Shown here one piece after another: positions 2,083-52,800 of a stretch of DNA of 64,000 nt (position 1 is its first letter; every line of letters starts with the position of its first letter). The translations under genes were made by a program, and so were the position numbers. The notes under the pieces were generated by a model, which worked only from the letters and a program-made list of their open reading frames with translations, did no database searches and had not been told where the DNA came from. Source of the stretch: Marsupella aquatica (taxonomy: Eukaryota > Plantae > Marchantiophyta); the NCBI GenBank assembly GCA_973895155.1, contig OZ316891.1, positions 5,489,708 to 5,553,707 of the forward strand. Reading direction: 5' to 3'.

Positions 2083-2333
2083 TTGATTTCTCGAGTCTTT
2101 CTTTGATTAGGGAATCAGACATTGATCTGAAAAATTGTTCATTCATTAATTCTCATTTCTTTCCATTTGTTTTAGCTTTTTTTCCTTTCTCTAGTACTGT
2201 AGTTGGAAAACTGGTCGGGAGTTAGATGGCCAGCTCTGGTTGGTTATTTCTCCAGGGGAAGCAGCAAGAGCGCGCAGTAGACAATGGACAACTGGATACA
2301 TTGTTATGAATGTTGGTCAAAATCACTCAATGT

Positions 2334-29834: not shown

Positions 29835-32682
29835 TACCCAGGCATTCAACTCCATTGTGCTCATATCATGTGACCGCTTATGCTGTGTAGAGTCTGAACA
29901 GGATACTCTGTTACTTGTCAAAATCTTGCCTTTGTACATGTCTCTGTAAGGAGTTACGGTCCTCTCTTAAAACATTCGTAGACAAAGGTGACTGTTAAAG
30001 GGTCGCAATGCAGGCTCTCATATCTGTAGATGAAATTGATTGTTAAGATTATGACGTTCAGACTGCAATGTCAATAGACACTCATGGTAGCAGCATCTGC
30101 TCAGGAAGGCTTTTCTGTGGTCTCTCTGTGGGCGATTTGTTCTACCTTTGTATAATATTACTGTTGAAGTTCAGCTTGATAAGTCAATTTTATCTCTCAA
30201 TTGTTCCTCTATTGTTTCTCCTTTCCACTGGCTACGAACATGGTCTCATTGCCCCTTCTGTTTCGATCCAAAAGAGACTCATTGTGCTTTTTGCAGTTTG
30301 TTTCCATGACATATGAAAGATTACATGGATATGATAGAAGAGAACTTGGATTATAGCATGCTCACCCTAGGACTTACTTCAGTCCTTGGTGTTGTACCAA
30401 TCAAAACAGGATTATTTTCTATCTTAATGAACTATTACTAAAAGAAATATTTTCAAGAAACCACTATATTTATTGTGGTCATGCGAATTGTCAACTGAGG
30501 GGGACAGTGGAAAATCAATAGCGCAATTAGTGAAGCTCATATTTTATTTCTCTATCAGGGGAGATGTGAACTCTGGAATAGTTGTTTGAACTGTTGTAGC
30601 TTCAAATCGCAGAATAACCTAAGGAAGTAACAGCTGTCCTCAGTGTTGAGAGCTTTCTGTTCGGACTGTGATTAGTTTTCGATCAAGACACGAGCACATT
30701 CACAAGCGACCTCTCCCCCAACAAAAATAGAAAGTAGGGCGAGACTCATTCTGTTCAATATTCCAAAGCTCAACCTATTACAAGGAGCTCAACGTTATGG
30801 ACCTTTCAGTTGGCAGATCAGTACTATTTCTCCCATAAGGACTAGTAACTTCTACATGAAGTTCTTAGACCCAACTGCGAGTTGGGTCCTCGGAAATGCG
30901 GCCATTAAGAGACAGCGAAATCTTAGGAAATAAAAGATAAGTCTGTTCTTATGAGGTGCAACGTGGCCAGTGGGCTTGGCAACTCGTCTGCGTTTTTGTC
31001 GGTTTCACAGCATGGGTTATACAGGGTACAGTTTGCAGGGTCTCGTTTTGGGGTTCCCTGGACCTCCAAATATCGACACTACCGAACGAGATGCTCTTCT
31101 GTTCTTCCAAGGCAAGAAAGTCGACGAACTGACAGTGCAGTGTTCAATCTTGAAAAAATATTTCAATCTACACAAGAAATCAGTCCATCACCTGCGCGGG
31201 ATTGCCAGTTTATGTGTGCAAGTTGTCGTCAGTACGAATTTTGCCTCCCTATGGATCATTAATCGATTCCCTACTGCTTTGCATGCGTCTGGAGAGGATA
31301 CTAGCAAGATCACCGCTGGAGTATAGACCACCTGAAAGGCTATAATAGTGAGGGAGTTGCGAAAGAGATCTCTCAACTCGGCGTTACCATCCTTTCACAT
31401 CGACGTCCACTCCATGCAAGTATGATCTGTGGTTCACTTAGGCAGGGCAGAGCTTACAGTATGGTTTGTTCCTTCGAGCAGTTGGATTTCTTTGTAATTG
31501 ATTCCTTGCAAGTCAATATCAGACAGCAGCCGTTGAGAATTCTTAATCTACAACTCATAATATCTCAGACAACCTGCCAAAATGTAGCACTTTCAAAATG
31601 TGTTACTTTCTTCAGCACAAACGAGCGACACATACAATTAAAATGTTTCCTACTTTGGCACTCGTCCTCTGTGAGGTGCAAGGTGTGAGGTCGGTAGCAC
31701 TAGCTCGTCCTCTCTTTCCTGCACATCCACGAATTGCACTCGCCCTCTCTTTCCTGCACATCCACGAATGCTGCCGATCATCAGTGTTGGGTCTAACCTC
31801 ACGCAGCGGTACTACTAAATTTCTTACAGCGCAGTTGGTGTCGCCATCGATCCTATTCTTGTCCAGAAACGCAGCAGGACTACTTCTCATATAGCACACT
31901 TCGCCTCCCCATGGATCCTTGTCATTAGTAATTCTCAATGCCTCTAATCTGCAGCTATCTGAACGTTTAAAGATTGTCATTCTCCTCTGGCATTATACAA
32001 CTTTCTTTCTTACTTGAAAATTTTAGTATTTCTTTCACCGAGTACCATCACAGTTTAGCAAGGAGCATTTCTTGCAACGAACAAAAGCTCCACAAGGGCT
32101 GGAAAAAGGATAGGTTAATTTGTGCATTTGCCACTGCCTTCCATTTGAGAAGCTCGTTTTCTGTGTCCTGCAAGTCCAGTACGGTTTGTTTTGGGTGGAG
32201 TCCAAACAATAGTCCCTTTAGCAGCAAAAATGCTTCAAACATGAAGCGCTAATTCTTACTTCAAGTACCATCCTGTAAATTAAGCTGCACTCCTTCAGCT
32301 AAACATCAATATCTTAACCCTAAATTCTAAACCTATAGACCCTCCTCCATATGCACCATCAATTACAAACATTTGCACTACCTGCAAATGTCATTCTATC
32401 TTCATGTGTGCGGGTCAAACCCTAGAACATGCGAACGGAGCAAACTAGAAGTTGGTCAAGCCAATGCCAGTCCCTCATGAACACACACACATTGTCAATA
32501 AGTAATAATGAAGTCTACGATTTATGTAGGTTTGGTGATTCATTTTCCCCCCTCATTCACATGTTTTTTTTTCTTATGCATTGTTCCTACAGAAAATTGC
32601 ACTTTCAGTTGTCTTTCCTCATTCACATGTTTATTTTCTGTGATGCACTATACAGGTTGTTTCATTTGCAACAATTTGAAAA

Positions 32683-34029
32683 ATGGTTCTTTCCAATGAG
32701 GAATGGGAAATCATTTGTTCAACAATTCTCATGTTCCAGCAAGTGGTCTTGCAGCAGATGCACTTGTCAGCTCTAGTTGCTACCTATTTCATAAAACACA
32801 GACGGGTGTCGGGTGGAGTGCACGGTACATTGTTTGCAAACGTGTTTCTACTATGTCAGATGATTCAGCTTGCCCACAGAGATCATCGCCTTCTGTCTCA
32901 AAATTATATTGAGCCAAGATCAAAAGAATGGAGTGGGTGGTACCTTATGCATGTCATCGAAGACGATCCAGTTCGCTTCAAGAATTTGTTTCGGGTGTCA
33001 CCTGCAACGTTCCAGTACATTTGTGACCTGGTTCGAAGAGACATGACTACACAACCCCCACCTGGCCTACGCAATTTGACCAACAAGACATTGTTGATTG
33101 AGCGACAAGGTGCCACAGCATTGCGTAGATTTGCCAGTGGGTGTTTGTTGTTAACACTCTCTAAGATATTTGGGGTTTCACTCCCATGTGTTTCTAATGT
33201 GATTTGGCGATTTGTGAAGGCATTAATTGTGAGCGCACGAGGGAGACATTTGATTTGGCCAGAAGGTGAGGCCATGGCACAGGTAAAAGAAGAGTTTCGC
33301 CAATTGCAAAGGTTTCCAAATTTCTGCAGTGCAATTGACGTCACTCATTTTCAAGTGAAGTTACTCCTGGGATGAGTTCCATTGATTATTGTGACTACAG
33401 GCATGGTCAGAGCAGTTCCATGCAAGCTGTTTGTGATAGCTGACTTTGATTTTTAGATGTGTTTGCAGGATGGCCTGGTAACATTCAAGACTCTCACCTT
33501 CTAAGAGTGTCGGGTTTTTATAATGATGTTGTGCAGTGCCACACAAAACTCTCGGCCCGGCATTTATGGCTCCAACTGGATTCACTACAGGGGAGTACAT
33601 TATTGGTGATGCTGGTTACCCTGTTTATCCTTGGTTGCTAACCCTTTTCCTGGGGCGAGAGAGCATACCCAGAAGAATGAATTCAACTACAAGCTTAGCT
33701 CAACCAGGATGTGCGTGGAGCGTGCTTTAGGTCAATTTAAGAATAGTTGGAGATTCATTTCTCGTAAAATGTTTCGACCACATCCTTATCGACTAGCTCA
33801 CTATATTACTAGTGTGTGTATTCTTCATAACATTCGTATTGACTGTGGAGATGTATATGACCCTGCATGAGGTTAGATCCAAACCCGCCCTATGAACCTG
33901 GAGGTCCTCCAACTACATGTCAGAATTATCATAATGGGCGTAGTTATCGTATTGCGATGATGGACCATTTGTTGCTTGAGCGAGAGTGGGAGCAGCAATG
34001 TTGTGCTGCTCACAGACATAGCACATAGT
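32683..34029 (+). pseudogene. PIF/Harbinger (HARBI1-like) DDE transposase, frameshifted
   Basis: FKNLFRVSPATFQYICDLV, ALRRFASG..LSKIFGVS, FPNFCSAIDVTHF, FAGWPGNIQDS, IIGDAGYP, FNYKLSSTRMCVERALGQFKNSWR, CILHN spread over several frames. Confidence 0.9.
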
Positions 34030-34110: not shown

Positions 34111-35708
34111 TGTTGTACATTAGTTAGAAATGATGGAAATTTTATAAATTTTAAACTTTTTCTAACTCAAGGTACAATCTAGTTACCTTTTGTAGCAATT
34201 TAGATCAACTGAACACTTTACCTAATGTTATGCTTCATCGGAGGCTATTCTATATTGGACAAGGATCGCGAATATAAATCCTTGCTCTTTACATGCTACC
34301 AAGAAAGAAGACTGGACATCATTGGAGAAGCAATGCAGACTAGAAGATTCAAGAACCGGCCTCATTGGCCTATTTAGTTAAATAGCTATCATGGTCAGAA
34401 AAGTCTCATACTTTTTCAGGAGGTAGTAGTTGCGTAGTAGAATTATCCCTGCAAGTTTCATCTCAAACCGACATGTGGTTTGAAAGTTAGAATTAATTTA
34501 GTTTTGCTGTTTTTTGCATAGCCGCGACTTCGCCGACGCTTTGTGAAGCGTCCCTTGTATTTTTGGACGCTTTGAAAAGCGTCCACCCAAGACCACGACG
34601 CTTTCTGAAACGTCCACCACCCAACCAGTTGTACTCCGATGCTCTGCAATCCACATGAGGAGCGACGCCCACAGAAGAGTCTGCTACCCCGAAGGTGACC
34701 TCGACACTGTGACGCCCACTGAAGCGTCCCGCCCGGAGCCCAGAAAATGGACGCTGCGACCAAAACCTCGAAATTCAGCCGACGCTTTCTGAAGCGTCCA
34801 TAAAAGTCCTTTGTAATTTTGGACGTTTTCTGAAGCGTCCACTATGTTCCCGACACTTAGAAAAATTTTCAGTTTTTGCAATTTTATAACACCGTGCCCC
34901 TTTTACCGATTTATTTGAGGCACTTAGAGATCTCAGAAAAGTCTGAAACTTTACCAGCATAGAGACTATATGTAGTAGAGTACCCTAGAAAAGTTTCAAC
35001 TCATTCCGACTCTTAGTTTAGAAGTCAAAATTAGATTAAAATCACTGTTTATTAGTTTTACCGCAAACACCGACGCTTTGCAAAGCGTCCGCTCAAACCT
35101 CGACGCTTTCTGAAGCGTCCCCTGCATTTTTGACACTTTCAGCAGTGTCCATTCACTTTTCAAGGATGACCGTCATTAAGTTTATTCAAGACCCTTTAGA
35201 TATGAAAGGGCATGTCCTTTCAGTATCTCAGTCTCCTTGGGTTCCTGCTAGCCTATATGAAGTAGAATTTGTGTCATTTTCAAGTGTGAAGAAATAAAGT
35301 AGTGCTTGTGGCATGTGCTGCAGCACTGGAATCACCTTTGCTTGCAAATACAAAGGAATTCTTCTCCCTTCCTTGGTCTGAATGATTGAGAGTTTAGATC
35401 ATTGAAGTAAAATTACTTGTATGAAGTTGAATCTCAGAAGTATGAGGGAATAGATTCCTTAAGTGGTGACAACCCATCTTCTTGAGTTCTTGATGCATAG
35501 TTTTTGGCGTGACATTGCTTGTGCATGGGATGCAAAGATTGTTACTCACCAATTACCTGTGACTTCAATTTGATCATGATGGTGTTTATTATTCGTGACT
35601 CAGAGTACCGACTGGATATCGAAGTGATTGATTACTAGTTTCTTCTGAGTACCTTTGGAAGGAAAAGTTGAGACGTGTTGACGGCATTTTAGTAATCATC
35701 CTAGTACA
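34111..35708. mobile_element. Possible solo LTR carrying GACGCTT-N4-AAGCGTC palindromes
   Basis: TG...CA ends with only a 4-bp flanking match (GTAA). Non-coding. Contains an LTR-type GAAACTTT...AAAGTTTCAACTCATTCC segment and nine short palindromes. Boundaries tentative. Confidence 0.35.
34535..35149. repeat. Nine copies of an 18-bp interrupted palindrome GACGCTT-N4-AAGCGTC
   Basis: Copies at 34535, 34566, 34597, 34711, 34781, 34822, 35072, 35102 and 35132 (some degenerate). Confidence 0.9.
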
Positions 35709-36180: not shown

Positions 36181-36754
36181 CTACTCCGAAGGCCGCAAAG
36201 AACTTGCAACCTTCTCTTTGAAGACATCAGTCCAACGTGCCATCTGCTCGGCTGTCGTTTTTGCTGCAGTGGTAATTGTTGTGGCCAAAATAACTCCTTC
36301 CTGCTCTTGAATTTTACACTCATGCTCTCGGATCTCAAAATCACGCTGGGCCATTTCAGCACAAGTGTTGGCCATGCTTTTGAAAGTGTCTGTTTGCCGC
36401 TCCCAGACTTGGCTACCTTCCTGTGACAGGGCCCCAAACCCGGTAGTAACTTAGTGATAACTTATAATTGCATATATAAGTAGAAAGACAAGTAGGTGTA
36501 GCAAAAGTGTTTGGATTTTTAATTTTTTTTAGTTTTTGTTAGTTCTAATAAATTGATGCGACAACCGGAGGCCAGAGTTGAGAGGGATGTTGGGCGGAGA
36601 TGGATGACAATGGAGCCATTGAGGGGGTACAAGGAGGCCAAAAGGCAGCCCAAGGACTTGGAGGCCAAGGTGTGGGCATCTTGGAGGGGTGCGGGCTGGT
36701 CGGAGGCTCCACGTAAGGCGCAAAACGGGAAGAATGACCAAAATATAGAAACAT
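36181..36754 (-). pseudogene. Fragmentary spliced ORF (Pro-rich exon plus coiled-coil exon); possible C-terminus of the Harbinger-2 partner protein
   Basis: HSSRFAPY..PWPPSPW exon and MANTCAEMAQRDFEIREHECKIQEQE exon, convergent with the 32683-34029 transposase. No Myb domain visible. Confidence 0.35.
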
Positions 36755-36886
36755 TGAAACTTAAAACAGACGTTGTTGCGCTAGTACTATTCCAAACATG
36801 GTCATGTTTGGATTCATTTTGAAGCCCTCAATGAGCCCCATGCAAAATTGAGGTTCTCTAGTTGATTTTAGGTCTATATCAAACAG

Positions 36887-38406
36887 TGACATCTCAAGGG
36901 AACTCAACGCCTGTAAAACGGTAAACTAGACAATCTTGGAGTAGGGATGGTGGGAGGGCCCTTAGAAGGAAGGGACTCCCACAATTTCCCTTCCTCAATC
37001 CGTAGTTTCCCACAATTTTCCTTCCCCATTCCATAGGAGGGCACTCCGTAGAAGAACACATTCGTAGAAAGGGCCCCCACACTTTCTTCCTCCCCTTTTT
37101 CTCTATTCTCACTTATGAGGTTCCCACCCATTCCTAAACCCTAAACCCTATTGTGCTTGCTTTCAACATGTGTATGGACCTTGGTTGTACGAACATCAGT
37201 TTTTTGGCCATCTCAAAATCAGGAGTCTACGGGCTTTTTGGAAAGAGCTCGCCGAGCTGAATCCAACAATGTGTCACACGACCAAAATGGAGCTAAGACG
37301 AGGGAGATCCAACAGATCACGTTTTTCGAGAATACGGGGGTTTTGAGGCCGTACGCACGTCCGTACTACAGGAGGTCCCGACTTTGCAAGGGAAAGAGGA
37401 GGTAACAGCACATACGGGGAACCATGATCCGTGTTTTGCAAAGTCGGGGCCCCCTGGTGTTGTATGGACGAAATAGAGGGAGACGGTGCCCCGTAAAACC
37501 TTAAATGATCATATCTCGGCCGTTTGACCTCCGTTTTGTGCACCGTTTACGGAGCCGTGATCAGGAAGAGGAGGGGCTCCTCAGATATGTTTTCAGAAGT
37601 GGATTCTGAGAAAATTTTACTTTCGACAATTGTAGGGGACCTCTCCTTTTATGGCGGACCGGTGGTGGCGATCAAGAGGATTGAGACTCGTAGGTAGGGT
37701 AATAATATAGGATAGGAAATGGTGGACTCAAGTGAGTCCTTGTTTAGCGGAGTGGTATTCACTCCAGATGAGAGTGATGGGGAGGCCAACTCATGGGGCT
37801 CAAGCCATGGTACCGTGAGTCATGAGGAAGACTAGGGTGGTCGTACGGACTTGGTCGTACGACCTTTTGATTTTGAAACTTTTTGAAAGTGAGCACTCAA
37901 GGGCTTGTTGGAAAGAGCTCGCGGAGCTGATTCCAACAAGAGGCGGCGCTCCTCAAACGGAGCCAGGATGAGAAAGTTAGAGCCCCGCGAAGTTGATCGG
38001 TACGGGATACTAAAATGACCATAACTTGGTCGTCCGATGTCCGTTTTGGGAGCGGTTTGAGAATTCATGATCAAGAGGAGCAAGGCTACCCAGGGATGTG
38101 CTCAGAGGTGCAATCAGAGTGACACCAAGTTTTGGCAATTGTGGGGTCCCTTGTATTTTTGCGGTTTACGGAGTGATTTTGTAGGGCACCGTCAAAGGCA
38201 CCATCGGCCCCTTGGTTAGGTAGAGTTTAGGGGTATGTGTATGCCGCATAGCGCTAGGTTTTAGTTGACATTTATCTGTTGGTGATAGGATTTTAGGCGG
38301 CACCGCTAGGAGAAAGTGGTGGCATCCAAGTGCCATTGGGTGTTTGGGTGTGTGGGGTTAAGTGGTATTTAGGGGGAGAGCCCCGGAGTAGTGTGGGGGG
38401 AATTCA
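36887..38406. mobile_element. LTR-like or TE-terminal non-coding segment with internal duplication
   Basis: Two copies of GGAAAGAGCTCGC.GAGCTGA.TCCAAC (~37240, ~37910) and of AAATGA.CATA.CT.GG.CGT..TCCGTTTTG (~37503, ~38012). TG..CA ends but no TSD found. Confidence 0.4.
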
Positions 38407-38463
38407 CTTTTAAGTTAGAAGGGAAGGATAGCGGATAGCATTAAACATAGTGACGGACCAAAC

Positions 38464-38844
38464 GAGAAGTGTGACCACGGCGTATCCTGTTTGGGATTCA
38501 ATCTTAAAAAATCCAGTTTTGGCATGACAAAACATAAGAAAATGAGGTTGGATGCGAAGTGGGGTATCCCACTTTGCATTCATCGTCTGAATCCAAACCT
38601 CTCGGTTGGAAAAGGCAGGAAATTCAAGGTTGAATATGAAGTGGGATACCGCATATCTCACTTCGGATTCATTAGTGAATCCCATTAATTTCATAATCGA
38701 AATATAGAAACTTCAGTGTTGAATGCGAAGTGGGATACCCGGTATCCCATTTGGTATTCAACCTATGAATATCAATAAGGTTCGGTCTGAAAGGCAAAGG
38801 TTGAATGCAAAGTGGGATACCGCGTATCCCATTGGGTATTGAGT
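38464..38844. repeat. Palindrome array A: 5 copies of ~45-bp hairpin (GTTGAATGCGAAGTGGGATAC-N3-GTATCCCAYTTNGYATTCAAC)
   Basis: Copies at 38464 (degenerate), 38547 (central deletion), 38629, 38718 and 38800. Followed by splice acceptor TTTTTTGCAG at 38901. Confidence 0.9.
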
Positions 38845-39000
38845 TGCAATAGTTTCTCTGCAATGACAAAAGATATCTTATTGATTGGGAGTTTTTTGCA
38901 GGCTAGGTTCAGAGCAGCACCAACAGAATCCCGTCACTTTTGAGTGACAGACTTATAAAGCTTTAGCTTTCTTGGAGACCTACATTTTCCAGTGAGTTCA

Positions 39001-39327
39001 ATGACGGTCCATACTCAAAACCAAGATAAACGTGCTCGTCTATTGTATAAGAGATTAGTTGAACTCAAAGTGCTTCCTCCTGGATTAGGAGCGGTTTGGA
39101 TGGAAGGCGTAGATCCTCAAGATAGTTTGAATCCGCTCCGAATTGAGTTTTGCAAAAAGAATGAGCAAGGAGTTCCAATTCGGTCAAGGATTTGTTTGAG
39201 TGGTTGTCTGCACCCCGTTGATTCTTCTTGTAATTATTGTCGTGATGATCGTAACAAGTATCATCGATTGGCATACTTGTGTTGTCAGATTTGGAACGAG
39301 GATCCTTGGGTTAACTCTTCCCATTGA
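39001..39327 (+). CDS. Small Cys-rich orphan ORF inside the ParB-MTase block
   Basis: Open 108-codon frame, MTVHTQ...ICLSGCLHPVDSSCNYC...LCCQIW, downstream of the acceptor at 38901. No family recognised. Confidence 0.35.
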   Translation: MTVHTQNQDKRARLLYKRLVELKVLPPGLGAVWMEGVDPQDSLNPLRIEFCKKNEQGVPIRSRICLSGCLHPVDSSCNYCRDDRNKYHRLAYLCCQIWNEDPWVNSSH

Positions 39328-39520
39328 ATCTTCTTGATTCTTGTTGTTGAGTTTCGTTGAGCATTTTTGGCTCACAAATATTTTGCCAATATGTTTTTCT
39401 TTTGATCAAAGAAATAAAAGAATTCTTTTGATCCCTGTTTTGTAGGTTCCTCAGAAAGAGATCTTCTCCATTTTCTTTACTACTCTAGGTATTCCTTTCT
39501 TCTTGTTAAACTGGTTTGGA

Positions 39521-40075
39521 ATGGCCGTCCCTGAGAATCTAATCTTTGCGAGGTTAGTGACCGTATTTGAGAAAGAGAAGAAGAAACAAATTGAGCAGAA
39601 ACATCGACAAACTAAATCCGGACTACTTTTGGATGGACTTCCTGATGAGATTGTTGAAACTTGCATATGGCCCATTTTGAAAGTGTCTTGCATTGAGGAC
39701 AAATTTGATTCATCCAAGATCTCAACTGAAGAAAGACTTGGACGATTAAAAAAAATGGTTTGGCTTGGATCCACTTCAAAGAAATGAAACCAGCTTGTAG
39801 TTTGTACACGAGTATGGGGTCTCCTTTGACTTGCACGAAGCCAGTTTGAGGGATTAAATGAAATGCTTGCTAGCATTCCCCATGGAGACACACTTCAGAA
39901 TGTTCATCTCGCAATTTTTTTTAGGATGGAAACTCCGAATCTTCCCCCAATTGATTTCCTTGGTTTATTTTTGACATCAGAACTAAGTCAATTTCAAGAG
40001 GACTGGCTCAATCTAGAGAAAGATCTGCAAGCCAGATTAGTGGAAATATATGGACAAACTTTAGGGTTAGCTTGA
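39521..40075 (+). pseudogene. F-box-like protein, with in-frame stops
   Basis: LLLDGLPDEIVETCIWPIL ... WLGSTSKK*NQLV fits the F-box pattern LPxE..I..L...VxKxW..L (W replaced by TGA at 39785). Frame continues to 40075 through one more stop. Confidence 0.6.
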
Positions 40076-40377
40076 TTCCCGTTCTTTCAATCATGTTTAG
40101 GTCTGCTCCTCTTGAGCTCCTTGTAAAACTATTTTTCATGAATTGATTTACTATCTTTCGTGGCATTTCGTACCAAACTCATTTACTATCTCGTTGCCAA
40201 TTGAATTCGTACAAGGGTATCCCATATCGGATTGCACCTATAACAAATTTTGCCATATTTCCAACTATTTTCCAAGACTCTTTGGTGCGACTATTTGCCA
40301 CGACTATTTGCTTCGACCTTGCCGCGACTATTTCCCGCGACTAATCTCAGGAGTTAGCCTTGTTCAGGAGGAGAAAG

Positions 40378-40385
40378 TATAAATA
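40378..40385 (+). promoter_or_regulatory. TATA box
   Basis: TATAAATA about 30 bp before a CTCATT initiator-like site, preceded by repeated CGACTATTT motifs (40262-40345) and followed by donor AG|GTGAGA at 40503. Confidence 0.55.
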
Positions 40386-40546
40386 AGAGTGCCCTCCTCA
40401 AAAAGTTACGCTCATTTCTCCTCACTCGCGGTACCTCTATAACTTGCTGAATCCCCAATCTCCATAGATATTCGTATTCACTCGGACACATTCCATTAAC
40501 AGGTGAGAATCATGTAGTCTCCTCAATTTTTGGATCAAACTAGTAG

Positions 40547-40948
40547 GATGAATCCGAAGTGGGATACGCGGTATCCCACTTCGCATTCACTTAGGCCAAA
40601 TTCGCTTTTGAGATTAAAAACGCATGGAGAATCAAGGTTGAATGCGAAGCGAGATACCGTGTATCCCGCTTCGCATTCAACATGAAAATCTCAAGAGTTT
40701 TCTGAATCCTCAACGCGATAAAGGGGTGAATCCGATGTGGGATATGCGGTATCCCGCTTAGCATTCAACACCCAAATCTCAAGATTTCTGAACAAAAGAG
40801 ACGGATAGGAGCGATTGGATACTAAGTGGGATACCGTGTATCTCACTTGGTATTCAACATAGTGATCTTAGGCGTTTCAAAGAAAATAGGCAAAAAGTGA
40901 AACATTGAATGCGAGATGGGATACCGCGTATCCCATCTCGCATTCATA
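40547..40948. repeat. Palindrome array B: 5 copies of 45-bp hairpin at 88-90-bp period, inside a 5'-UTR intron (40503-41027)
   Basis: Copies at 40547, 40637, 40725, 40814 and 40904, with 43-45-bp divergent spacers. Paired substitutions in both arms of copies 2 and 5. Confidence 0.95.
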
Positions 40949-41028
40949 TATACTATTATGGTCTTGTTGCCTTTGACCTCGATCATATTAGGCTTGAAAT
41001 TCTTACATATGGTTTTCTTTTCTTCAGG

Positions 41029-41613
41029 ATGTCGAACAAGTCAAATGCTTCTGGTTCCACGGACTCTTTCCGGCAAGCCATCATTGATGAAATCTGGAAA
41101 AAGGATCTCTATGTGGAGGAGAAATTCCTCAGGAACATGTGGTAGTTGCATGATGCTCATGAGCTTGATCTTCATAGAGCGTATGCTGGCCCAGCCTTAT
41201 GGTTGATTGTTGTGAAGGGTAAGGAGCATTGCCACCAAGGGTTGGTGATTGACACGGCCGAGGCAGACATTGTAGACTCGAAAACACAAAAATTGAAAAT
41301 GGTGCCAATGTTTCTTTGCATTGGTCTTGACAAGACCTTTTCTGTGTTGGTCCTAAACTATGAAAAACTTGATCGAGTCTCGATGAATATATTTCCAGAT
41401 GATTCGATTACCAAGCTTGTGGCGGAGGCACCTGATGTAGATTCATTTTCGTACTGGTGCTTGAGTTATGTCTTCACATCTTGGAAGGTGGTGCGGGACT
41501 TCACCAAAATTATGTATCGTTCAGTGGTAGGGGAAGACTTTAAGCGTTGTCGTGATTTTCTCTTAAGTTATAAAAAATTGTTTGTTTTAATATGCTATAG
41601 ATTATATAAGTAA
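41029..41613 (+). pseudogene. Orphan ~194-aa protein with one in-frame stop
   Basis: ATG immediately after acceptor TCTTCAG|G (41027). MSNKSNASG...RNMW*LHDAHE...YRLYK in a single frame. Family not recognised. Confidence 0.5.
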
Positions 41614-41680
41614 TTTAGTAGTTAGATTATTAAATTTAAACTTTATTAAACTTTTTTAGCTATATTAACGGACTATAGAA

Positions 41681-41925
41681 GTTCCACCAATGCATGTGAG
41701 TAGTTCCACCAACTACAATAATATTCACCAACGCATAGTGGTTCTACCAACGCACAGTAGGTCCACCAGCGCATAGTAGTTCTACCAACGCACAGTAGGT
41801 CCACCAGCGCATAGTAGTTCCACCAGCACATAGTAGTTCTACCAACGCATAGTAGGTCCACCAACGCATAGTAGTTCCACCAACGCATGGTAGTTCCACC
41901 TACTAAAAGTAGTTTCACCAACTAT
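41681..41925. repeat. Minisatellite, 19-bp unit (CCACCAACGCATAGTAGTT), about 12 copies
   Basis: Directly visible tandem array; explains the repetitive antisense ORF 41673-41921. Confidence 0.95.
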
Positions 41926-42017
41926 GAATAGTACTAGCACACTCTTAGGTATTAGATGTTTGACACTTGGCCTTCATCCAAGTGCTTGGGCTTGATCCAT
42001 GCCCTCTTGGTGTGCAC

Positions 42018-42025
42018 TATAAATA
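42018..42025 (+). promoter_or_regulatory. TATA box upstream of the ParB-MTase-Ulp1 gene
   Basis: TATAAATA followed about 30 bp later by CCTCATT, the same layout as the 40378 promoter. Confidence 0.5.
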
Positions 42026-42242
42026 AAGTGGTGAGGGCACTCTCCCCTCATTCCGCAGTGTTTATCATTCAAGGTTGTGAAGCTCTTTTGTGCCTTGAAC
42101 ATAGTAGTGGGGCGTCCTTTGGCCCGGATAGCAAAGGAATGAGTGGTAGATTTATATATGGGACCTTAGGGAATAAGGTTTCTTTGGGAATATAGGGGTG
42201 GGGCGTCCTTTGGCCCGGATAGCGAAGGAATAGAAGAGCCAT

Positions 42243-45200
42243 CATGAATCCAGGAGAGAGAGTTATCCCTGATCTTCCCCTTCGTAATCCATTTTTGATT
42301 AGAGTCCATCTTTTAGACAAACCATCTATGAGGCAACATCTAACCTATCATTTTGGAGCTTAGTTTGCAACTGCTGTTATGGTTTCTAACGAGCCAATAA
42401 TATACCCAGTGGTGTCGTACCGAGAGGAGTGGGAGTGCATCATCTTTGTCTTTTATTGAAGTCATGGATTTGAATAGGAGTCCGAATGATATTCCTGTTT
42501 CATTTTCTCTTGGAGATATTAGGATCATATGTCGTAAGAAAACTAATTTTCGTGATGTGTTGGTCCGCAAGTATGGTGAAATAGGGTTTAACAGTATTTT
42601 AGTTTCACCTGAACCTTTCTTAATACCCACTACCCTTGTTACTAGAATTATCATTTTGATTTTAGTGTAGAACTTATAAGCATGCAAGGTTAACTTCAAA
42701 AGAGCCAACATGCTCTTGCCAGAAAACACGGTCACCCGGACAGCGTCCAGAGAGAACTCCATTGAAGTTGAAGATACACAGGCCAACTAATCCCTCTGGG
42801 ACGGTGGAGGATTCCCAGACAACAACAACAAAAGAGAAGGCAGTCTCCGAGCCGACAAAGAGGAAGAAAGCGCAAGATATCTCTGGTGGAAAATCTAGTG
42901 AACATTTCGGTGCAACTGTCTCAAAAGATGCTGCCAAAAAAAAGATGAAGTTGGATCGATGAGAAATCCGAAAGAGAGTAGTGTCTGCGCCTGCGAGTGT
43001 TGTGTCAACAGCTCCACCTTTGCCTTTGAGATTGGTAGGTGAGATTCCTCCAACTTCTCAAGGTGGGCCATCGATCACATCCAAGGGGAAGGGTCCAATG
43101 ATTGTTGAGAGGAAAGAAGATTTGACGAATAAACTGACTACGGCCCTGCAACGTGAAAAGACGTTGGTTGTAAGGGAAGAAGTGTCTCGCTTAATGGAGA
43201 CAAAAAGAGTTCAGAAGACCACCGTCATTCTGAAAACAACAAACCTCCTGTTGGTCAATGACATGAATGATCAGAACTCCACGTTGGTTCGGACTGTTGA
43301 TCGTTTGCACGTGGAGAATATCAAAACTTTGATGAAGTTGAATCCAACAAATTTCACTACGCCATTTGTGTTGTTTGTTATTCCGGAAGATTGTCCATCG
43401 GTTAAAGATTGGGACCCGGCCAAGGCATCAACCTGGAGATATTGGGTAATTGGGGGTAATCATGGAGCTCGAGCTAAAAGAGAACTGTTTGAGGCTTATA
43501 TGGTCGAGAAATCTTCAATGAACTTCAAGCATGGGTCTATGTAGGGCTTACAAGGGACGATGTTCAAAAACTCAGTATTCAACACAATATTGACCAGGAG
43601 TATCAAAAAAAGATGAACAATATTGATCAAATCCGAACAATGCATAAGGTCTTCCTTGCTCGAGGCATGCAAAACACAAAAGAGACTCGAGAGGCCTGAG
43701 CGTCGGAGGTATGTTTTGATGGCTTCATTCCAAGGGTTGGAAAAACACTGAAGAAGCACGAACCTCTTTTTCAGATATCATTTAGATCTGGAAAAGTTTG
43801 GAACCTCCAAGACCATCTCTTTGACATGTGGAATAGATTCGAGATAAAGGGGCAGAACAAACAAAAATCCCCGGTGAAGATACTGAAAAAAGGGAAGCGA
43901 AAGGCCACGCCCGTCGTGAAACCTTTGAACAAGCTAGCAAGGGGGCTCGCTTTGACGCCTTGGAGAGCGATCCAAGGGATTGAGCAGGACAGATTTTTGG
44001 AATCCCTTCTTCTTCGAGTCAAGGATCGAATGATCAGTCTTGAGCAGATGGCAAAAGAGGCTGAAAGTTACAAGAAGCTTGTGAAGATCAGTAAACTCTT
44101 TGTACAATTGTCTGGCCAACCAGATTGGACAACCTATAAATAAATGTTTCCAAAGGAGACGTAGTTTTCAGAGCTTGAAAGATGGAGCGGCAAACTCTCA
44201 GATGTGGTAAGTTATTCAAACGTGCGTTTCGAAGGTTGAATACCGAATGGGATATACGTATCCCATTTGGGATTCAACCCTCATTTTTGGCTCATTCATG
44301 TTCTTTCTTTGAGTTTCCTTCCTGGGTTTTGGTTGTCTTAGCGTTGTTTCTTTGATTTTCCTTGGTTTGAATCTGAAGGGGGATACGGCGTATCCCATTT
44401 GGGATTCAACTCTGGATTTCTATTTTGTCTTTGAGTTTCTTCGGGTGAAATCCGAAATGGGATACCGCATATCCCTTTCGGGATTCAAGCTAGAGTTTTG
44501 GAGGTTACGAGCGTGATTCTCCAGGTTTGTTTTGCGGAATACCTAATGGGATACTCGGTATCCCTCTTGGTATTCAATGCATAGTTTTATCATTGTAACT
44601 TAGGTGTCCTTTTGTTTTGTAGTTGAAAGCCTTCTCAAAGAAGAAGAATAAAACGGATGTCGGAAATGATTTTGAGGAGACTCTAGAGGAGGAGCTCAGT
44701 TTGGATGTTATCCCCCCTGGTTTTAAGAATATAGTTCAAGAAGCTATTGAGACTGCTCAGGCGGAATCAAGCGACCACCGTTGGAAAAATTATGATGGAA
44801 ATTTCATCAACTATACTCTCCACTGTGAAGATGTTTGCGCGCTTGATAGGTTCTTGGAGAAACGGCCTTACACACTTACAATCGCAGACATTCCTTATGG
44901 ATTCAATGCCGCCGGCTCCGAGAATGATGAAATTCCATTTTCGGAGACAGATATTATTGATATGGTCAAATGTTTTGCCAAGGTGACAACTTCACCAATG
45001 TGGAGGTTTGTTGTTATTCATTCTCTGCAACAAAGTGTCTCCGTTTTGAATGCTTTGGGAAAGACATGCAATGTTGGAGTTGAGGCAGGAATTTGGGAGA
45101 AGCCAAATGTACATGCACGTACACCCCTCCGGGAACAGGCTAGCTTGGGCGTTTGAGAACTGGTCCATCGGGTACTATAATGAAGGTGGTATCAGGTCTA

Positions 45201-46754
45201 GGGAAATGTATAATTTTGAGCATGATGAGAAAAGAATCAGCATCATCAAGGTACCTTGTGTTACCAAGAAATGTGTAACACCATTAGGGAAGTAGTGAAT
45301 CTGTATCAGAAGCCGATAGCCCTCGCAGACTAGTTTATCAAACATTTTAGTGAAGAAGGAGATTGGATTGTTGATTTATGTGCCGGAAGTGGGTCTACTT
45401 CGTGTGGGGCTTTGTTGGCAAAGCGACATGTGACAGCCATAGAGTTGAGTGCTCAACAAATAGACTGTATCTAGACTTGATTAGTCACGTTGGATGAATC
45501 ATGGGACTTGAATGAGGAAGCAATTGAGGAGGGTATAGGGCCGATGAGTTTGAGATACAACCACCAATTGGTGGTATGACGAGCACTCTCACCACCAGAA
45601 CTTGCATCATTACAACTGCGGCCGAGAATGATGATGATGTTGATGAGGAGGAGGAGGGGGAAGAGGAAGCAGAAGCTCCACCACTAGATCTTGGCTCATT
45701 CCTTGAGGTGTAGAGATTACTTTGAGATAGTTTGTCGCAAATGAGATTGCCCAAATTGTATATGAACTTCCGGAAATATTGAAAGAGATTTATATGTTCT
45801 TATGTGACAATAATGTCCTTGCAGGATCCATCAAAGGAGGTTATTGAATTGAAATGTGTTCTTCATAGATTTATGCACAATCCTTCTATTGGTCATCTTC
45901 TCAATCAAGAAACACTGGAACAACTTGAACCCGACCAATATTTGGGTGACAAAATTATAGAATTTTACCCAGAGTCCCAAATTGAAGAACATGGAGATCT
46001 TGCTCCAATGGTAAACACATTATCCTCATTTTTTTATCCTTGGATGGTTTCAAGGATTGAAATAGAACCAACACATGAATCTTTAGCAGAATCTATACTG
46101 AAAATGCCAGGTTATTACAAGCCTCCATTTTCCAAGATTCAGGTTATTTTTATGCCAATTCACATGAGTGGGCATTGGAGTTTGGTTTTCATATGTTTGG
46201 ATAGATCTCAATCTTTGATCCAAATGTATCATCTAGACTCACTTGCTGGTCTGCATGAAACTCGTCTAATCGAATCAGCATTGAAAAGATGAAGACTTAA
46301 CTTTATCTTCTACTATTTATTTTTTATATGAGATTATTTATTCATGTGATTATAAATGTCACTGACTAAGGAATTATTTTCAATGACTTGCAGATATTTC
46401 ACAATAGAATGAGAACTATTTTTTGGAAAAGTGTCATTGGGTGTTATGGAGATGTGGAATCCAAAGGTATGTGATTTGTTTCATTTAAAAAAAAAAAATT
46501 AGTTGGAAAATACATTTATGAATCGTACTAAAATACAACATGTTTTTTATCAAGTGCCCCAACAACCAAATACCATAGATTGTGGTTTATTTGTCCTACA
46601 CAACATGGATGAAATTAGAGTTCAATGGAGTAATTTAAAATATATATTCGTAGAGTCTTTATTAACAAAAGATTGGTACAACCTCACACAAGCATGTCAC
46701 CTGAGAAAGGTGATAAGAGATAGAGTTATCAAATTAATGCATGTATCTACATAA
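42243..46754 (+). pseudogene. Spliced multidomain gene: ParB/Srx-like domain + beta-class DNA N6A/N4C methyltransferase + acidic linker + Ulp1/C48 SUMO protease (decayed)
   Basis: ParB-like: LVRTVDRLHVENIK..PFVLFV..YWVIGGNHGARA (GGNH 43452-43463)..AWVYVGLTRDDVQKLSIQHN. Phase-0 intron 44207-44622. MTase: LTIADIPYG (44887-44898), IWEKPN, NLYQKPIAL (45307), SEEGDWIVDLCAGSGST..RHVTAIEL (45373-45393). Phase-0 intron 45708-45824. Ulp1: FMPIHMSGHWSLV (H 46173), HLDSL, VPQQPNTIDCGLFV (C 46581). Several stops and frameshifts; 5' start uncertain. Confidence 0.8.
44235..44578. repeat. Palindrome array C: 4 copies inside the intron joining the ParB-like and MTase exons
   Basis: Copies at 44235, 44366, 44445 and 44534. 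Spacers are T-rich, suggesting inversion relative to the A-rich spacers of arrays A and B. Confidence 0.92.
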
Positions 46755-47839: not shown

Positions 47840-49763
47840 AAGTATTTCTAACTTTGCACCATGATACATTTTAAATATTTAATTTCAAAAATTAGACTTT
47901 GTTTAAGTTCTTGTTCAAACCATGGTTCATGGTTATTTAAATATTCTTATCAATCAATCACTTGATCTTAATCATTTCTATCATTCAATTCAAAACTTTA
48001 TGAATCAAGATTTAGGGTAGTATTATTCAAAAGTCATTCAAAACTCAAGTTTGTAAAAAAGGATAGATGTATTAACCTCCGAGTGGACCAGTTGATACAT
48101 CAATAGGTATTTTGTAGACTTTGTCATCTGACTTGAGAATCTTATCCAATCCATATTTTTTGATTACACGAGTAATACTACTATCACCAAGGTGGAGGGT
48201 ATCTTTGCAAAGCTCAATAATATCCTCTCTCATGTTCTTCTTGGCCAAATTATACTTTATTAATCTGGAAATGTTTTTTACTAAAATACTTCGCAGTTCA
48301 CACGGTGCTTCTTCAAGCTGATCAAGATTAGATTGGGTTGTCAAAGAAAAGAACTGTGTCAAGCTTTCGTGGATTGATTCGTTACAATATGCACGTACTC
48401 AAGTTCCCAATTTCTGCAAAACAATCAGAGTTTTAGTACATGCTTTGAATTGCAATAAATTGGATATATTAAATACACTTTTGAGGTTTTGGGTTTAGAA
48501 AAATACATACCAAAACAGAGTCAAAAAGTTGTTGGTCAAATTTTTGTGGTAATTTTCTCTGCTTCACATTCTTGATTGAATGACACCTTGAAGAATGCAT
48601 GTCACAAAAAGACAATTTGCATGATAAACTGTTAATGCCGAAGATGATGATTTAGATTTTGTCTGGTACTGTGTAATGAACGCAACATAATTTGGGTGAG
48701 CCAAAATGGAACTCATCACCAAAAAAATGTCGATTGCGTTTGAAATGACTACCACAACATGAGATGATTTTGACCCAATGACTACTGCAGCATCAAAAAA
48801 TACTTCATATGTCTTTTGTGTCATGGATACTCCAGTCATCATGGTGGCATCCAAGAATATGAATGTTGTCATGAAAAGAATATGAAATTGAAAAAAAATT
48901 CAATTTTTTTAACATCTTGTATAGTTTCATCCATAAGTTGAAAGTGGAATCTGTCATGTTCAAAATGAAAGGTCCAAGTTCACCTAGTCGGTACTTCTCA
49001 TCTTTGGCCCAAGGAATGACAATCATTGCTGCTTTCATAAAATCTTGTATAAAGACAAGTAAATCATTAAATAAGTATAAACCATGGTTCACACTAATTT
49101 ACTTTCACAATATATTGCATCAAAACAAATGAACAAAACTTTAGATTTTAGAGATTATGATTCATACCCTCCATTTTGAATCTTTGGTGCTGTTTGTTTT
49201 TTAGGGAGGATACTCATAACTTTTCTAAATATCCCTAACCTGCCTTGCAATGAGGAAAATTTGAGATTCATCCATGCTGTGTGATGAACATGATTTAATG
49301 TCTTAGATACTAGTCTCATCATCACCAAGTTCCCAGCCAAATTGTAAGGTGCCCAAAATATGACTACATCGATTGTAAAATATTTTTCGTGAATCTCTGG
49401 AGCCACTGGTTCATTATTCGAAAGTAACCGATAGGCTATAACAGTGTGCTGGCCACCAATTATCCAAAAATGATAATTGTCAATTTGATCAAGGATAGGT
49501 GGATTGTTGAGCATAGATGACGATCGCAACGGCAAGCCCATGAACCATCCAACGCACAATAGTCGACACAAGAGATACGTGGTTCACCTCCTTGAGACTA
49601 CATCCACAGGAACACACAAGAGAGCTTTACTGAACTCTAAGCCCGTCGACTATACCGAGTCTCCATAGTGTAAGCTCTCCCTATCTCTCAAGTGGCTCCA
49701 TAACAATGAGCCTTGGTTCTACCTCTCCAAGCACACGTGCCTCTTATGATATAGTGTGCAACT

Positions 49764-49848
49764 TAGTTGTACCTAATCATATAGTTGTACCTAACCACGT
49801 AGTTATACCAACCCACGTTGTTGTACCAACCACGTCATACCTAACCTA
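49764..49848. repeat. Short ~18-bp tandem repeat (TAGTTGTACCTAACCACG-like), 4-5 copies
   Basis: Directly visible in sequence. Confidence 0.75.
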
Positions 49849-52800
49849 GACATAAGAATAAATACCCAACATGGATGTGTCAGTGGAGTTCCAACATAGC
49901 CAACCTCATTGCTCCTACTCTCGGCCCAAAACACTTGGATCAGGAAACAAACCCGCTTCTCAAAGTTTACCAACGATTAAAATTTCATCGAGTTTGCAAG
50001 ATCTCTTGAGTAATCAGGATCATGACCTCTATATTTTACAACATTGGGTGTAATGTGACATTTTGAATTTTTAATATTAAAAACTTTACTATCAAAGATG
50101 TTTGCTTTCTTATAAGCACCATTGAAGCTCTTGCAAAGATCTCCTATGTTTTCTCCAATGATCAATTTTGGAAGTTTTCTTGTCTCAAACTTGGATTGTT
50201 TCTCTAGTTCCTCCTTCTTCCCAACATGAAATGTTTCTGTAAAAATGCATTTACCCCATTCCAAGATGGATAACACAAAACTCTCAATGGTTGTGCCGTT
50301 TGTGAGTATAGAAACTTTTGGGAAAGTGAGATTCCAAATGACTGAAAATGCCTATGGTGAGAAATTGCAATTGGCTTCCATGTATGTATGGCTAAACATC
50401 CCAAACATCTCTCTAGAAAAACAATAACAATGAGACCTCCTTTAGAGTGAGACCCTCGAGTAGTGCTCAAGTAGTAGACTTCTTTAAGTGAAGTATTTTT
50501 GGAGAATAGGTGGCATACACTCAGAGAAAAGAGACGATGGGTGCAAGTGAATGAATGTATGACATGTTTTAAAGGCATTGGGTTAGAACAATTTTAGTAT
50601 TGCTCCTTGGTTATATCATTTTATTGCAAACCCAAGGTCTACTCATGAAGCCTAAGGTCTTGCATGTTATTAGGAAAACTATAGCAATGCTCCAATTCTA
50701 ACATCAATATTTTTGCAAAAATAAATTAAACACCTGGAAGAAAATAAATTTACACACCGGAGTTCTTTGTGGTCAAATATATGCTACCTGGTTTTTTATG
50801 AGAATCAGATAACATATAAAAAAAGCGCACATCACCTATTCTATAGAATAAATTAGCACTTGGGTAACTTCCAAAATATTTTATAATTCTTGATTTGAGA
50901 ACCCTGCAAGAAAAAAAGTGAACAACCTTTCTAGAAAATAAAGATGGATTTTAGAACGTTGTGTTTTTTGTAAGTGTTAAAAATCCATGTGACAGCCTTG
51001 CATTAAGTGTCCATTACATTGTTGAATATGTTTTTCACTATTGTTTGTTACTAAACATCAAGAAATTAAAAAACTCATGATTATACCAGCAATGCACATT
51101 TTGTACTTGCCTTTCTTTTCATCCCCATGAAATATTGTAGTGGTACATGGTATGGACGAAGGATGCCGATATGCTAATTTGTAGATATTCTTGTATTATC
51201 ATCGTATAGTCGTACGATCGTGGTACGGTTGTACAGACATATCGAATCCAAAATGTCACCAAAATCAAAATTCCGTCACTAAAAAATTGTCAAATACTAA
51301 AGTATTTTTAATTCCTCATCCAGAGTCCAAATAAAAAAACCAACAATACTTTTTCAGCCTAGAATTATGAGAAGAATCTAAATATGTAATCTATTGCCAA
51401 TTCTATTAAACTCAAATTCTAGACTTTAAAGTTTTGAAGTGAATAAAATGCGAGATAAAGTGAATTTAGAGTTGACGAATGTATGATACACTTTATTAAT
51501 GGATTGAAAAACATAAAGCACAAACATAGATACTGTCCAACGAAAAAAACTGACCATTGCATATGTAATTGACAAAAACTCTAAGCAATTATCATCTCTA
51601 CTCTCTACGAGCAAGTAATCAATCAGTATCATATCCGAGTTTGCAGGAATCAAGAGGAAGAGAATCTCATCGTCTTTCTTTGTAGTGTGCTTCAGTAGTC
51701 TCTTGCCACACCACTTTGTAATCTGCAAAATTACAAAGGATGCAATAGAAGGGCATTAAAAGAAAAATTAAAAACTTTGAGAAGTGAATAAGACAAGGAA
51801 AGAAGCTCTCCCCTTAGTACCTGAGATTTTTAGTCCACGTTGGAATGGATAGTCTTTAATCTTGGGGCCCCTTCTTAGGACAGACAGTCATTGATAGTGG
51901 GGCGATAATCTAGTCATTAAGGCAAGGTGTCGGAATAGAATCGTGAGGAGGGGAAAATTGAAGAAAAATAAAGAAACAGAAGGAACATTAGGAACATCGA
52001 GAAAACAAGGAACATAAACAAGCGAATGCGGCATGATTGAAACAATTCAGAGATATTTTCAGTGGCCATTGGTAGTTTTTGAGTCCAGACCTAAGGTGAT
52101 AGTTTCATGTTCTAATAGTCCACCTCGCTGATATAGAGGCGATTAAGGATGCAGGGCAGGTTGAGAGCTTCTGCTTAGCTTTAGTTTGGAATTGCAATTG
52201 TCTGGCTACGAATCCTCATCCACAGAGAGTTGTCCACGTCGGATGTCCTCACAGATATGACACTGGTCAGATGTGTGCAAGATCATTCGAAGTTGGGTCG
52301 CGCTATAGTAGCAATTGTATGCCACCTAATTAGTAAAAATTATCGTCAAATAATTGATTATAATTCTTAAGTCATTTTTTGGCAAAAAATATTACAATGT
52401 GACTGTATTGCGCTAATTCAAACTCAACACCGCAACGTTTATGAAAAATATTTTGTATGTTGTTTGAAAGATCATCTCCTTTGCACATTCTTTCCATGTT
52501 AAGAAAATCATAAATCTAGGTATAAGATCCCAAATTCATCTCCCCATGAAATTTTTGCAATATCAGTTTACATATGTATAACCATACTAAAATACAAAAG
52601 TGATAGAATTTGAAAAGAGAACATTGAGTTTCACTGATAGACTAAAATTTTGGGGGTTTCACTTCCATAGAATTGACACATCACGTGCGACAAAACACAA
52701 ATTGAATAATTTTATTAGTTTTGAGGAAAAACTTATAGAATTTTATATTTTAGGGTATTATGAATCTAATTTGTAATCTAGCTTGTAAAAAATTTAGAGT

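Follow-up and report, generated by a model that had tools for sequence, protein, structure and literature searches.

Palindrome arrays as probable sites for the ParB-fold methyltransferase of a plant transposable element

A 64-kb stretch of the Marsupella aquatica genome (contig OZ316891.1, positions 5,489,708 to 5,553,707; 'the window' below, meaning all 64,000 nucleotides that were analysed) contains three arrays of palindromic repeats, lettered A, B and C, in and beside the decayed gene of a mobile element. The gene joins a ParB-like part to an amino-methyltransferase (MTase) and is here called the ParB-MTase gene. We read the arrays as clustered sites for the element's own ParB-fold methyltransferase, with a protective role, and give this reading a probability of roughly 0.63. 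It is built on the arrays themselves, on the exclusion of their units from exons, on lineage-specific dyads that surround a common core in homologous elements, and on the DUF7869 transposase and terminal repeats found in relatives.

Palindrome arrays in the window

The window holds 14 palindromic units in arrays A to C together with one degenerate single unit (Table 1), in agreement with the positions given in the original prediction, which was made by a model from the letters alone. Matches to GGGATAC-N3-GTATCCC with up to two mismatches number 11 in the window, against 0.14 expected, and this figure was reached by none of 100 shuffles of the window. All 11 lie inside the arrays, bearing out the earlier statement that the motif is seen nowhere else in the window. 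All 15 units, the single one included, are in non-coding DNA. Exact patterns of the window type had no match in metagenome contigs and none in viral contigs. The cores bear some likeness to restriction sites of type IIS and type I, which is not used here as evidence.

The palindromes had been described as better conserved than the DNA between them, and this is so: mean pairwise identity is 0.74 among the 11 in-register palindromes, compared to 0.42 over all eight spacers, 0.49 for the spacers within array B and 0.39 for shuffled spacers. The proposed period of about 89 bp describes array B well (88-90 bp, with spacers of 45, 43, 44 and 45 bp), but array A has 82-89 bp and array C 79-131 bp, so that the spacing is regular in B only. 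The arrays are not a plain 89-bp satellite, the explanation that the original prediction had set against its own: the spacers do not align as well as the palindromes and barely exceed shuffled DNA, the period is variable, and the arrays are absent from the Tandem Repeats Finder output for the window.

Dyad repeats of the homologous elements

Searching with the MTase alignment fetched 25 loci from two record series, and no relatives in viral contigs or prokaryotic genomes. The 22 plant-like loci (L001-L022) were kept and three (L023-L025), weak matches with 57% GC, were dropped. Fifteen of the 22 have a dyad repeat of their own. The other seven start no more than about 200 bp upstream of the ParB open reading frame (ORF) or inside it, and since the arrays of their lineages lie 200-860 bp upstream, the DNA in which a dyad would be expected has been cut off.

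Five motif types, including that of the window, track the protein lineages, which diverge down to about 35% protein identity. In L001-L004 the motif is GAATnnnnggAGCGA(G/T)AC-N2-mirror, present in 35 copies. That of L005, AATacaggnnCCGATCc-aa-ACATCGG, is one-sided, with a stem of 5-6 bp and an invariant asymmetric centre; its 21 copies comprise 13 forward and 8 reversed. The loci L008-L010, L012, L013 and L019-L021 have AACTCGATAC-N3-mirror, while L007 and L016 have CCGATGC-N3-mirror or a close variant. Common to all five types is the core GA(T/G)-N6/7-(A/C)TC, the GA adenine being kept in every one. The half-sites of the window and L001-L004 consist of AAT and GA(T/G) blocks 13 bp apart around a variable middle, an arrangement that L005 has on one side only. 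No cross-matches occur among the cores of the window, of L001-L004 and of L005, each being confined to its own loci (chance core matches amount to 0-3 per 100 kb of shuffled DNA); the two distant motif types cross-match each other at two mismatches.

None of the 56 scored copies in L001-L005 falls in an exon, and exons make up some 62-81% of those loci, a share that includes some estimated exon bounds. They are found instead in the non-coding parts of the ParB-MTase gene, namely its leader, introns and 3' gap; one of the 56 is classed as intronic by an identified splice donor. In the distant group they are found only upstream of the gene, including between divergent genes. Arrays B and C of the window had both been placed in introns. 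For array C this is supported, since the surrounding intron has the same position and the same phase 0 in all five close relatives (L001-L005), each with arrays in it. For array B the predicted intron (40503-41027) has splice signals as its only basis, and its donor differs in related copies; ending 1 nt before the ATG, it would be an intron of the 5' untranslated region. Periods range from 32 to 131 bp among the elements. The 89-bp period and the intron location are properties of the window copy, not general ones of the system.

The encoded protein

The MTase exon of the window is 43-59% identical to eight intact homologs, which start at the same acceptor, and PF01555 matches on the homologs. 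A profile search gave 29 proteins at E < 1e-30 and 155 at E < 1e-10; named homologs among the 19 matches looked up are from Chara braunii, Ginkgo biloba, Riccia sorocarpa and Adiantum nelumboides. The motifs run in the order IV, target recognition domain, X-I, with DIPY ahead of YQKP and DLCxGxG. For this part of the protein a beta-class N6-adenine MTase fold is predicted. A model of the single-ORF homolog P0043 (predicted local distance difference test, pLDDT, 82) has CcrM, M.BceJIV and M1.HpyAVI as its best folds, with E of about 1e-11 to 1e-9, and the family profile scores N6-adenine beta-class enzymes at E 1e-15 to 5e-10 compared to 1e-4 for N4-cytosine enzymes. Motif IV reads D(I/V/F/L)PY in 18 of 20 rows, DPPY in one and DIPH in one. 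It is never SPPY, the motif carried by N4-cytosine enzymes (PMC8885841; cited sources here and below are represented by their accessible portions).

ParB N-terminal and DNA-binding folds are likewise predicted in the family. A model of the N-terminal half of the relative P0023 (pLDDT 85) yielded seven PDB matches with E < 0.001, all of them Noc or ParB; in Foldseek these range from E 3e-5 to 4e-4 and are followed by KorB at E 0.02. Between the segment WRALQG..SLEQM and the DNA-binding domain of Spo0J there is a weak alignment (E 0.74), and PF17762 has a match in L005 (E 9e-4). The ParB-like region of the window is 41-50% identical to that of L005, and the N-terminal coding part shares 23% identity over 161 amino acids (aa) with the N-terminal exon of L002 (E 5e-9, pairwise). 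Trees group the window proteins with L001-L005, internal support being weak. No Pfam family of VANC or TnpA homologues was present among the scanned ORFs. The ORFs of the window include no ParA ATPase, nor do those of L021, which is a near-complete element. The original interpretation holds in part. Its first option, in which the ParB-MTase of the element binds or methylates the palindromes in a parS-like manner, gains strong comparative support from the lineage-specific dyads of homologous elements and from the model matches to ParB, Noc, KorB and N6-adenine MTases.

Two further observations concern this protein. At the position equivalent to the ParB GHA residues (window 43700-44140 compared with L001-L021), lineages with a 6-bp core gap have G-H/N and those with a 7-bp gap T-P, L-P, S-L or S-H; these residues are a candidate specificity site on anecdotal grounds, the window nonetheless being closer to the 6-bp-gap lineages. 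Separately, a predicted protein of Chara braunii (P0031, 1825 aa) contains two ParB-MTase units in tandem.

Transposon type of the relatives

Judged by their sequences, the intact relatives appear to be DUF7869 terminal-inverted-repeat transposons, a point that the original prediction missed. The DUF7869 transposase is present in four of the 22 relatives. It is whole in L020 and L021 (E 2e-53), where it diverges from the ParB-MTase gene with the array between the two, and is represented by C-terminal parts in L001 and L004, there convergent with the ParB-MTase gene. L021 is an element some 8.6 kb long, bounded by terminal inverted repeats of 35 bp that start with AACACG. Its arrays are internal: the left end is about 3.6 kb away and the right end 4.5 kb, and neither end has an array. 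The right end in lineage C is met by five different flanks. Named homologs of the transposase come from Ceratopteris, Adiantum and Riccia; the transposase had no sequence match in the PDB.

Terminal repeats at L020:116-152, L021:8595-8629 and L015:4081-4088 all start AACACG. Three flanks read TTAA across the junction, so that the element may end in CACG and have a target resembling TTAA. The (AA)CACG termini of the relatives resemble CAC-type ends, a likeness to Spm/CACTA elements.

Alternative explanations

The palindromes are very probably bound by protein as double-stranded DNA. CpG retention around the arrays gives an indirect hint of low 5-methylcytosine (5mC): the observed/expected ratio in array regions with the motifs masked is 0.82, which exceeds both the 0.39 of the remaining non-coding or decayed DNA of the element (p=0.02) and the 0.50 of the flank (p=0.04). 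Two weak hints come from four DNA-type sequencing runs. Contig matches stop exactly at the palindrome edges, the flanks being unlike, and the best units reach about 6-14 times the summed depth of the coding regions, near the 14-15 units per element, depth being no copy number.

Several points weigh against assigning the arrays to the element's own ParB-MTase. The CpG ratio of the array regions does not differ significantly from that of the element exons (0.60, p=0.42). The overlap with the ParB fold is partial, with TM-scores of 0.39-0.50 according to target. In ParB proteins that bind cytidine triphosphate (CTP) the arginine patch reads GxxRxxA; here, with the equivalence drawn by eye, GG(N/S)HxxxA (GGNHGARA in the window) replaces it, which makes a CTP clamp doubtful. 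Many of L006-L022 are near-identical and the relatives and window together represent three sources, so that the real sample is one of five motif types. The DUF7869 transposase and terminal inverted repeats were searched for in the window block and neither was found; the transposon-type identity therefore rests on the relatives. Within the window, two features mildly favour RNA: G-U mismatches outnumber A-C ones (20 vs 9, p=0.06), and over 13 units the folded sense strand is on average 3.9 kcal/mol more stable. Finally, the array of L020 and L021 lies between the promoters of the transposase and ParB-MTase genes, and so the transposase could be the binder.

That last possibility, in which the arrays are protein-binding sites read by the DUF7869 transposase or by some other factor encoded by the element or the host, while the ParB-MTase would be cargo acting on a different target, is unlikely, though likelier than the other alternatives. 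The array is also 0.6-1 kb upstream of the transposase in L020 and L021, and transposases and the transposase-derived TnpA are sequence-specific activators acting on clustered motifs (10.64898/2026.08.24.746577). The internal position of the L021 arrays speaks against it, as does the fact that in the window and L001-L005 the ParB-MTase gene has its leader, introns and 3' gap filled with arrays. The dyads, moreover, suit a dimer of ParB type, the motifs of VANC and TnpA being short and non-palindromic in the cited accounts, as far as these are accessible.

It is improbable that the arrays are neutral by-products, their symmetry kept by template switching and their units amplified as a satellite or as a tiny foldback element favouring these introns. 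Five element lineages keep a dyad of the same core geometry despite their divergence, the spacers diverge and the units do not, and the L005 unit is conserved though it forms no long palindrome. The spacers of array B, more alike than shuffled ones, do show tandem duplication, and the best units are far more abundant than spacers in the DNA runs; that abundance is nevertheless about what 14-15 units per element copy would give.

Slightly less credit still is due to the idea, put forward in the original prediction as intron-derived hairpin RNAs, that the units act as RNA hairpins in introns and leaders, either as small-RNA precursors or as splicing elements. In addition to the strand difference and G-U excess given above, the folding energies of the window units (-16 to -33 kcal/mol) are in keeping with it. 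Paired arm changes, reported earlier for the second and fifth units of array B, are indeed present there, but checking covariation across copies gave no excess: 11 both-arm changes are found in 12 copies, compared to 7.8 +/- 2.4 under random arm re-pairing (p=0.13). Taken singly, L001, L002, L004 and lineage C also lack any excess, and only L003 passes (5 copies, p=0.03). Pooling L001-L004 gives 33 both-arm changes vs 22 shuffled (p=0.01), a signal that arises from differences between elements. G-U mismatches are not favoured in L001-L004 (27 vs 32 A-C); in lineage C they are (45 vs 25, p=0.02), the copies there not being independent. The motif of L005, one-sided and used in two orientations, combines with the lack of covariation beyond shuffles to make RNA hairpins unlikely. 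Arrays of the distant relatives lie upstream of the gene or between divergent genes rather than in introns, the half-sites keep two blocks by sequence around a middle that varies, and the nine Rfam matches score 20-27 bits, none of them near the gathering scores of 73-200.

Least probable is that the ParB-MTase binds the arrays as an operator-type repressor limiting the element's own expression, a KorB-like autoregulation with the same binding step as the reading preferred here and a different outcome alone: the arrays do overlap leaders and the gap between divergent promoters, and KorB is among the fold matches, but arrays also occupy internal introns and 3' gaps, like the non-coding targets of VANC (PMC5735166), and the CpG retention around them hints at low 5mC.

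Proposed mechanism

On this balance we infer that the ParB-MTase, rather than the transposase, reads the motif; by analogy with VANC and TnpA, the purpose would be self-recognition and anti-silencing. The ParB-MTase would most likely bind each dyad as a symmetric pair, or dimer; on palindromic parS, ParB likewise forms a pair with two-fold symmetry (PMC7383237). Each subunit would contact two blocks lying 13 bp apart, GGGATAC on the inside and AAT on the outside, and the clustering of sites would give avidity. The fused enzyme would then methylate an adenine at or near the invariant GA, a modification likely to keep the element's promoters usable and out of host silencing. Units would spread by local tandem duplication while the spacers drift.

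The ParB-MTase copy in the window is a dead gene, interrupted by 1.2 kb of inserted DNA and by at least eight stops and three frameshifts, so that its arrays would be relics or else targets in trans of intact copies. A wider proposal, which we offer only tentatively, is that a family of DNA transposons extending across the streptophytes, with homologs in Chara, Riccia, Adiantum and Ginkgo, has repurposed a ParB-parS module and joined it to an adenine MTase, each ParB domain reading its own arrays and the enzyme writing N6-methyladenine (6mA) as a self-mark that resists 5mC silencing, in plants said to have lost 6mA.

Comparison with known systems

The nearest parallel in logic is that of the VANDAL elements of Arabidopsis, Mutator-like elements in which an accessory protein, VANC, is paired with lineage-specific motifs (PMC5735166, PMC10398659). 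VANC motifs, like the present arrays, form tandem repeats in non-coding DNA (intronic, intergenic and terminal) and diverge fast between families (PMC5735166). They are, however, 8-9 bp long and not called palindromes in the accessible part of that account, whereas the present family has dyads of 25-45 bp. The VANDAL transposase is MuDR, while that of the present relatives is DUF7869, and the place of VANC as reader would here be taken by a ParB-fold protein fused to an amino-methyltransferase. Anti-silencing has been shown for VANC (PMC5735166) and is proposed for the present family by inference.

The TnpA protein of Spm/CACTA elements offers a second parallel, being a helix-turn-helix accessory protein with family-specific clustered motifs (10.64898/2026.08.24.746577). 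It is transposase-derived, binds the element termini and, in what is accessible of the same source, is reported only in flowering plants; in contrast, the arrays of the present family are internal and its protein is of prokaryotic ParB/MTase type.

Among bacterial systems, ParB-parS, Noc-NBS and KorB (PMC7383237) also have clustered palindromic sites that change with the protein lineage, and theirs are the folds predicted here. Unlike them, the present system belongs to a eukaryotic element, has no ParA among the ORFs named above, uses longer half-sites of two blocks and has a C-terminal MTase fusion.

Prokaryote-type MTases in eukaryotes are also known. The DAM retrotransposons are eukaryotic mobile elements whose adenine MTase is proposed to favour their own activity (10.64898/2026.05.21.726589). 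Their DAM domains are of NPP type and are found in DIRS and LTR (long terminal repeat) retroelements, and the accessible text mentions neither ParB nor palindromes; the present enzyme is a predicted beta-class D-x-P-Y one, fused to ParB, in streptophyte DNA transposons. The introduction of the same source counts streptophytes among the lineages said to have lost 6mA, given there as all major multicellular ones. Marchantia DN4MT1 and rotifer N4CMT, too, are prokaryote-derived beta-class amino-MTases in multicellular eukaryotes (10.1101/2021.02.12.428880, PMC8885841), but these are host genes with SPPY that write N4-methylcytosine (4mC), compared to D-x-P-Y and a location in transposons for the present family. 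ParB-HTH (helix-turn-helix) fusions are mentioned, in the accessible portion of a survey of eukaryotic N6A-MTases, only for a Dam family of chlorophytes and chytrids (PMC4738411).

The top language-model look-alike of the ParB-like exon is DUF3723 of the fungal Starships (score 0.95-0.96, a lead only, the recognition value being below the reliable range). DUF3723, like the present gene, is a conserved accessory gene of a eukaryotic mobile element (10.1101/2021.12.13.472469). Starships use tyrosine recombinases, and neither an MTase fusion nor palindrome arrays are noted in the accessible part of that account. The Pfam DUF3723 profile had no match on the ParB-MTase family proteins. Literature searches found no description of the family, within a coverage that misses most subscription journals, Repbase reports and preprint supplements, where it may be listed.

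The element block and its surroundings

The features of the block are collected in Table 1. From about 38.4 to 50.6 kb the window is occupied by a decayed block that is multi-copy in the four DNA-type sequencing runs. In the three runs that cover the right flank, the summed contig depth of its coding parts is higher than that of the flank by a factor of some 17-140, which is not a copy number. The joint 41544-42745, representing copies free of the 1.2-kb insertion, is seen in runs X3 and X5.

Table 1. Features of the palindrome arrays and of the decayed element block (window coordinates).
Feature	Position	Strand	Remarks
Array A	38460..38844	.	5 palindromic units: 38460-38502 (left arm decayed), 38547-38584 (centre collapsed), 38629, 38718, 38800; upstream of acceptor 38900/38901
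Decayed cargo ORFs	38959..40073	+	108-aa Cys-rich ORF and F-box-like ORF (label presumed from LPDEI motif); multi-copy; no Pfam or PHROG match
Degenerate single unit	40200..40237	.	Collapsed centre; upstream of TATA-like box at ~40379
Array B	40547..40948	.	5 units, starting at 40547, 40637, 40725, 40814, 40904; in 5' leader of ParB-MTase gene
ParB-MTase N-terminal coding part	41029..41544	+	One stop; start just after array B
1.2-kb insertion	41545..42744	.	Contains 19-bp tandem repeat; other copies lack the insertion
ParB-like region	42745..44206	+	N-terminal domain with GGNHGARA and helix pair of ParB-type DNA-binding domain (predicted); stops, frameshift
Phase-0 intron	44207..44622	+	Encloses array C
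Array C	44235..44578	.	4 units: 44235 (2-nt centre), 44366, 44445, 44534
Beta-class amino-methyltransferase exon (predicted)	44623..45710	+	Motif IV DIPY, motif I DLCAGSG; stops, frameshifts
Ulp1-type SUMO protease gene (cargo)	45783..46751	+	PF02902 E 1.4e-9 on 45783-46289; catalytic-Cys exon from translation
Second ParB-like gene fragment	48075..50593	-	Heavily decayed; WIIGGQH; profile match E 0.006
Very high-copy short insertion	49505 to ~49900		Splits second ParB-like gene; left flanks AT-rich, varied

A 13-bp tandem repeat, ACTATTTGCCACG, occurs in 6.3 copies at 40264-40343, just upstream of the TATA-like box of the ParB-MTase gene. The insertion 41545-42744 contains, besides the 12.9 copies of its 19-bp tandem repeat (41675-41922), a direct repeat of 44 bp and a TATA-like box. 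Part of the short insertion that splits the second ParB-like gene is joined to position 38451 in one of the runs.

To the left of the block lies a decayed transposase of PIF/Harbinger type (32680-33870, + strand; PF13359, E 2e-10) with a convergent coiled-coil ORF (36184-36450, - strand). It was considered as part of the same element and rejected, there being no terminal-repeat support. Just downstream of it is a second, unrelated palindrome array (34535-35150) with nine copies of GACGCTTT-N2/3-AAGCGTC and a CpG observed/expected ratio of 1.17, possibly the cognate sites of another element. Another Harbinger-like element is found at about 553-3695. A high-copy block at 36520-38330, around ten times deeper than the ParB-MTase element and containing a 39-bp direct repeat (37231, 37901), is presumably an LTR fragment. 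We take the window to be land plant DNA, its host genes having been read from translations; among their products is a dehydroascorbate-reductase-like protein. One divergent pair of such genes, 23904-25316 (- strand) and 27915-29834 (+ strand), is an inverted duplication, 73-82% alike, and presumably encodes 2-oxoglutarate dioxygenase-like proteins.

Implications

Self-activation of plant transposons by VANC and TnpA works via recruited loss of 5mC (PMC5735166, 10.64898/2026.08.24.746577). By comparison with those systems, the logic proposed here would match and the parts differ: long dyads, a reader of ParB type and an enzyme as writer. If the reading is true, arrays of cognate sites would work in non-flowering plants together with a ParB-like reader and a writer enzyme of prokaryotic type. 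The reading points to particular bases where genuine 6mA or 4mC could be sought in land plants, in which 6mA is disputed, and may hint at what DUF3723, the ParB-like cargo of fungal Starships, does. The family would also supply several natural pairs of protein and site with differing specificity, useful for the study of co-evolution and possibly for targeted methylation.

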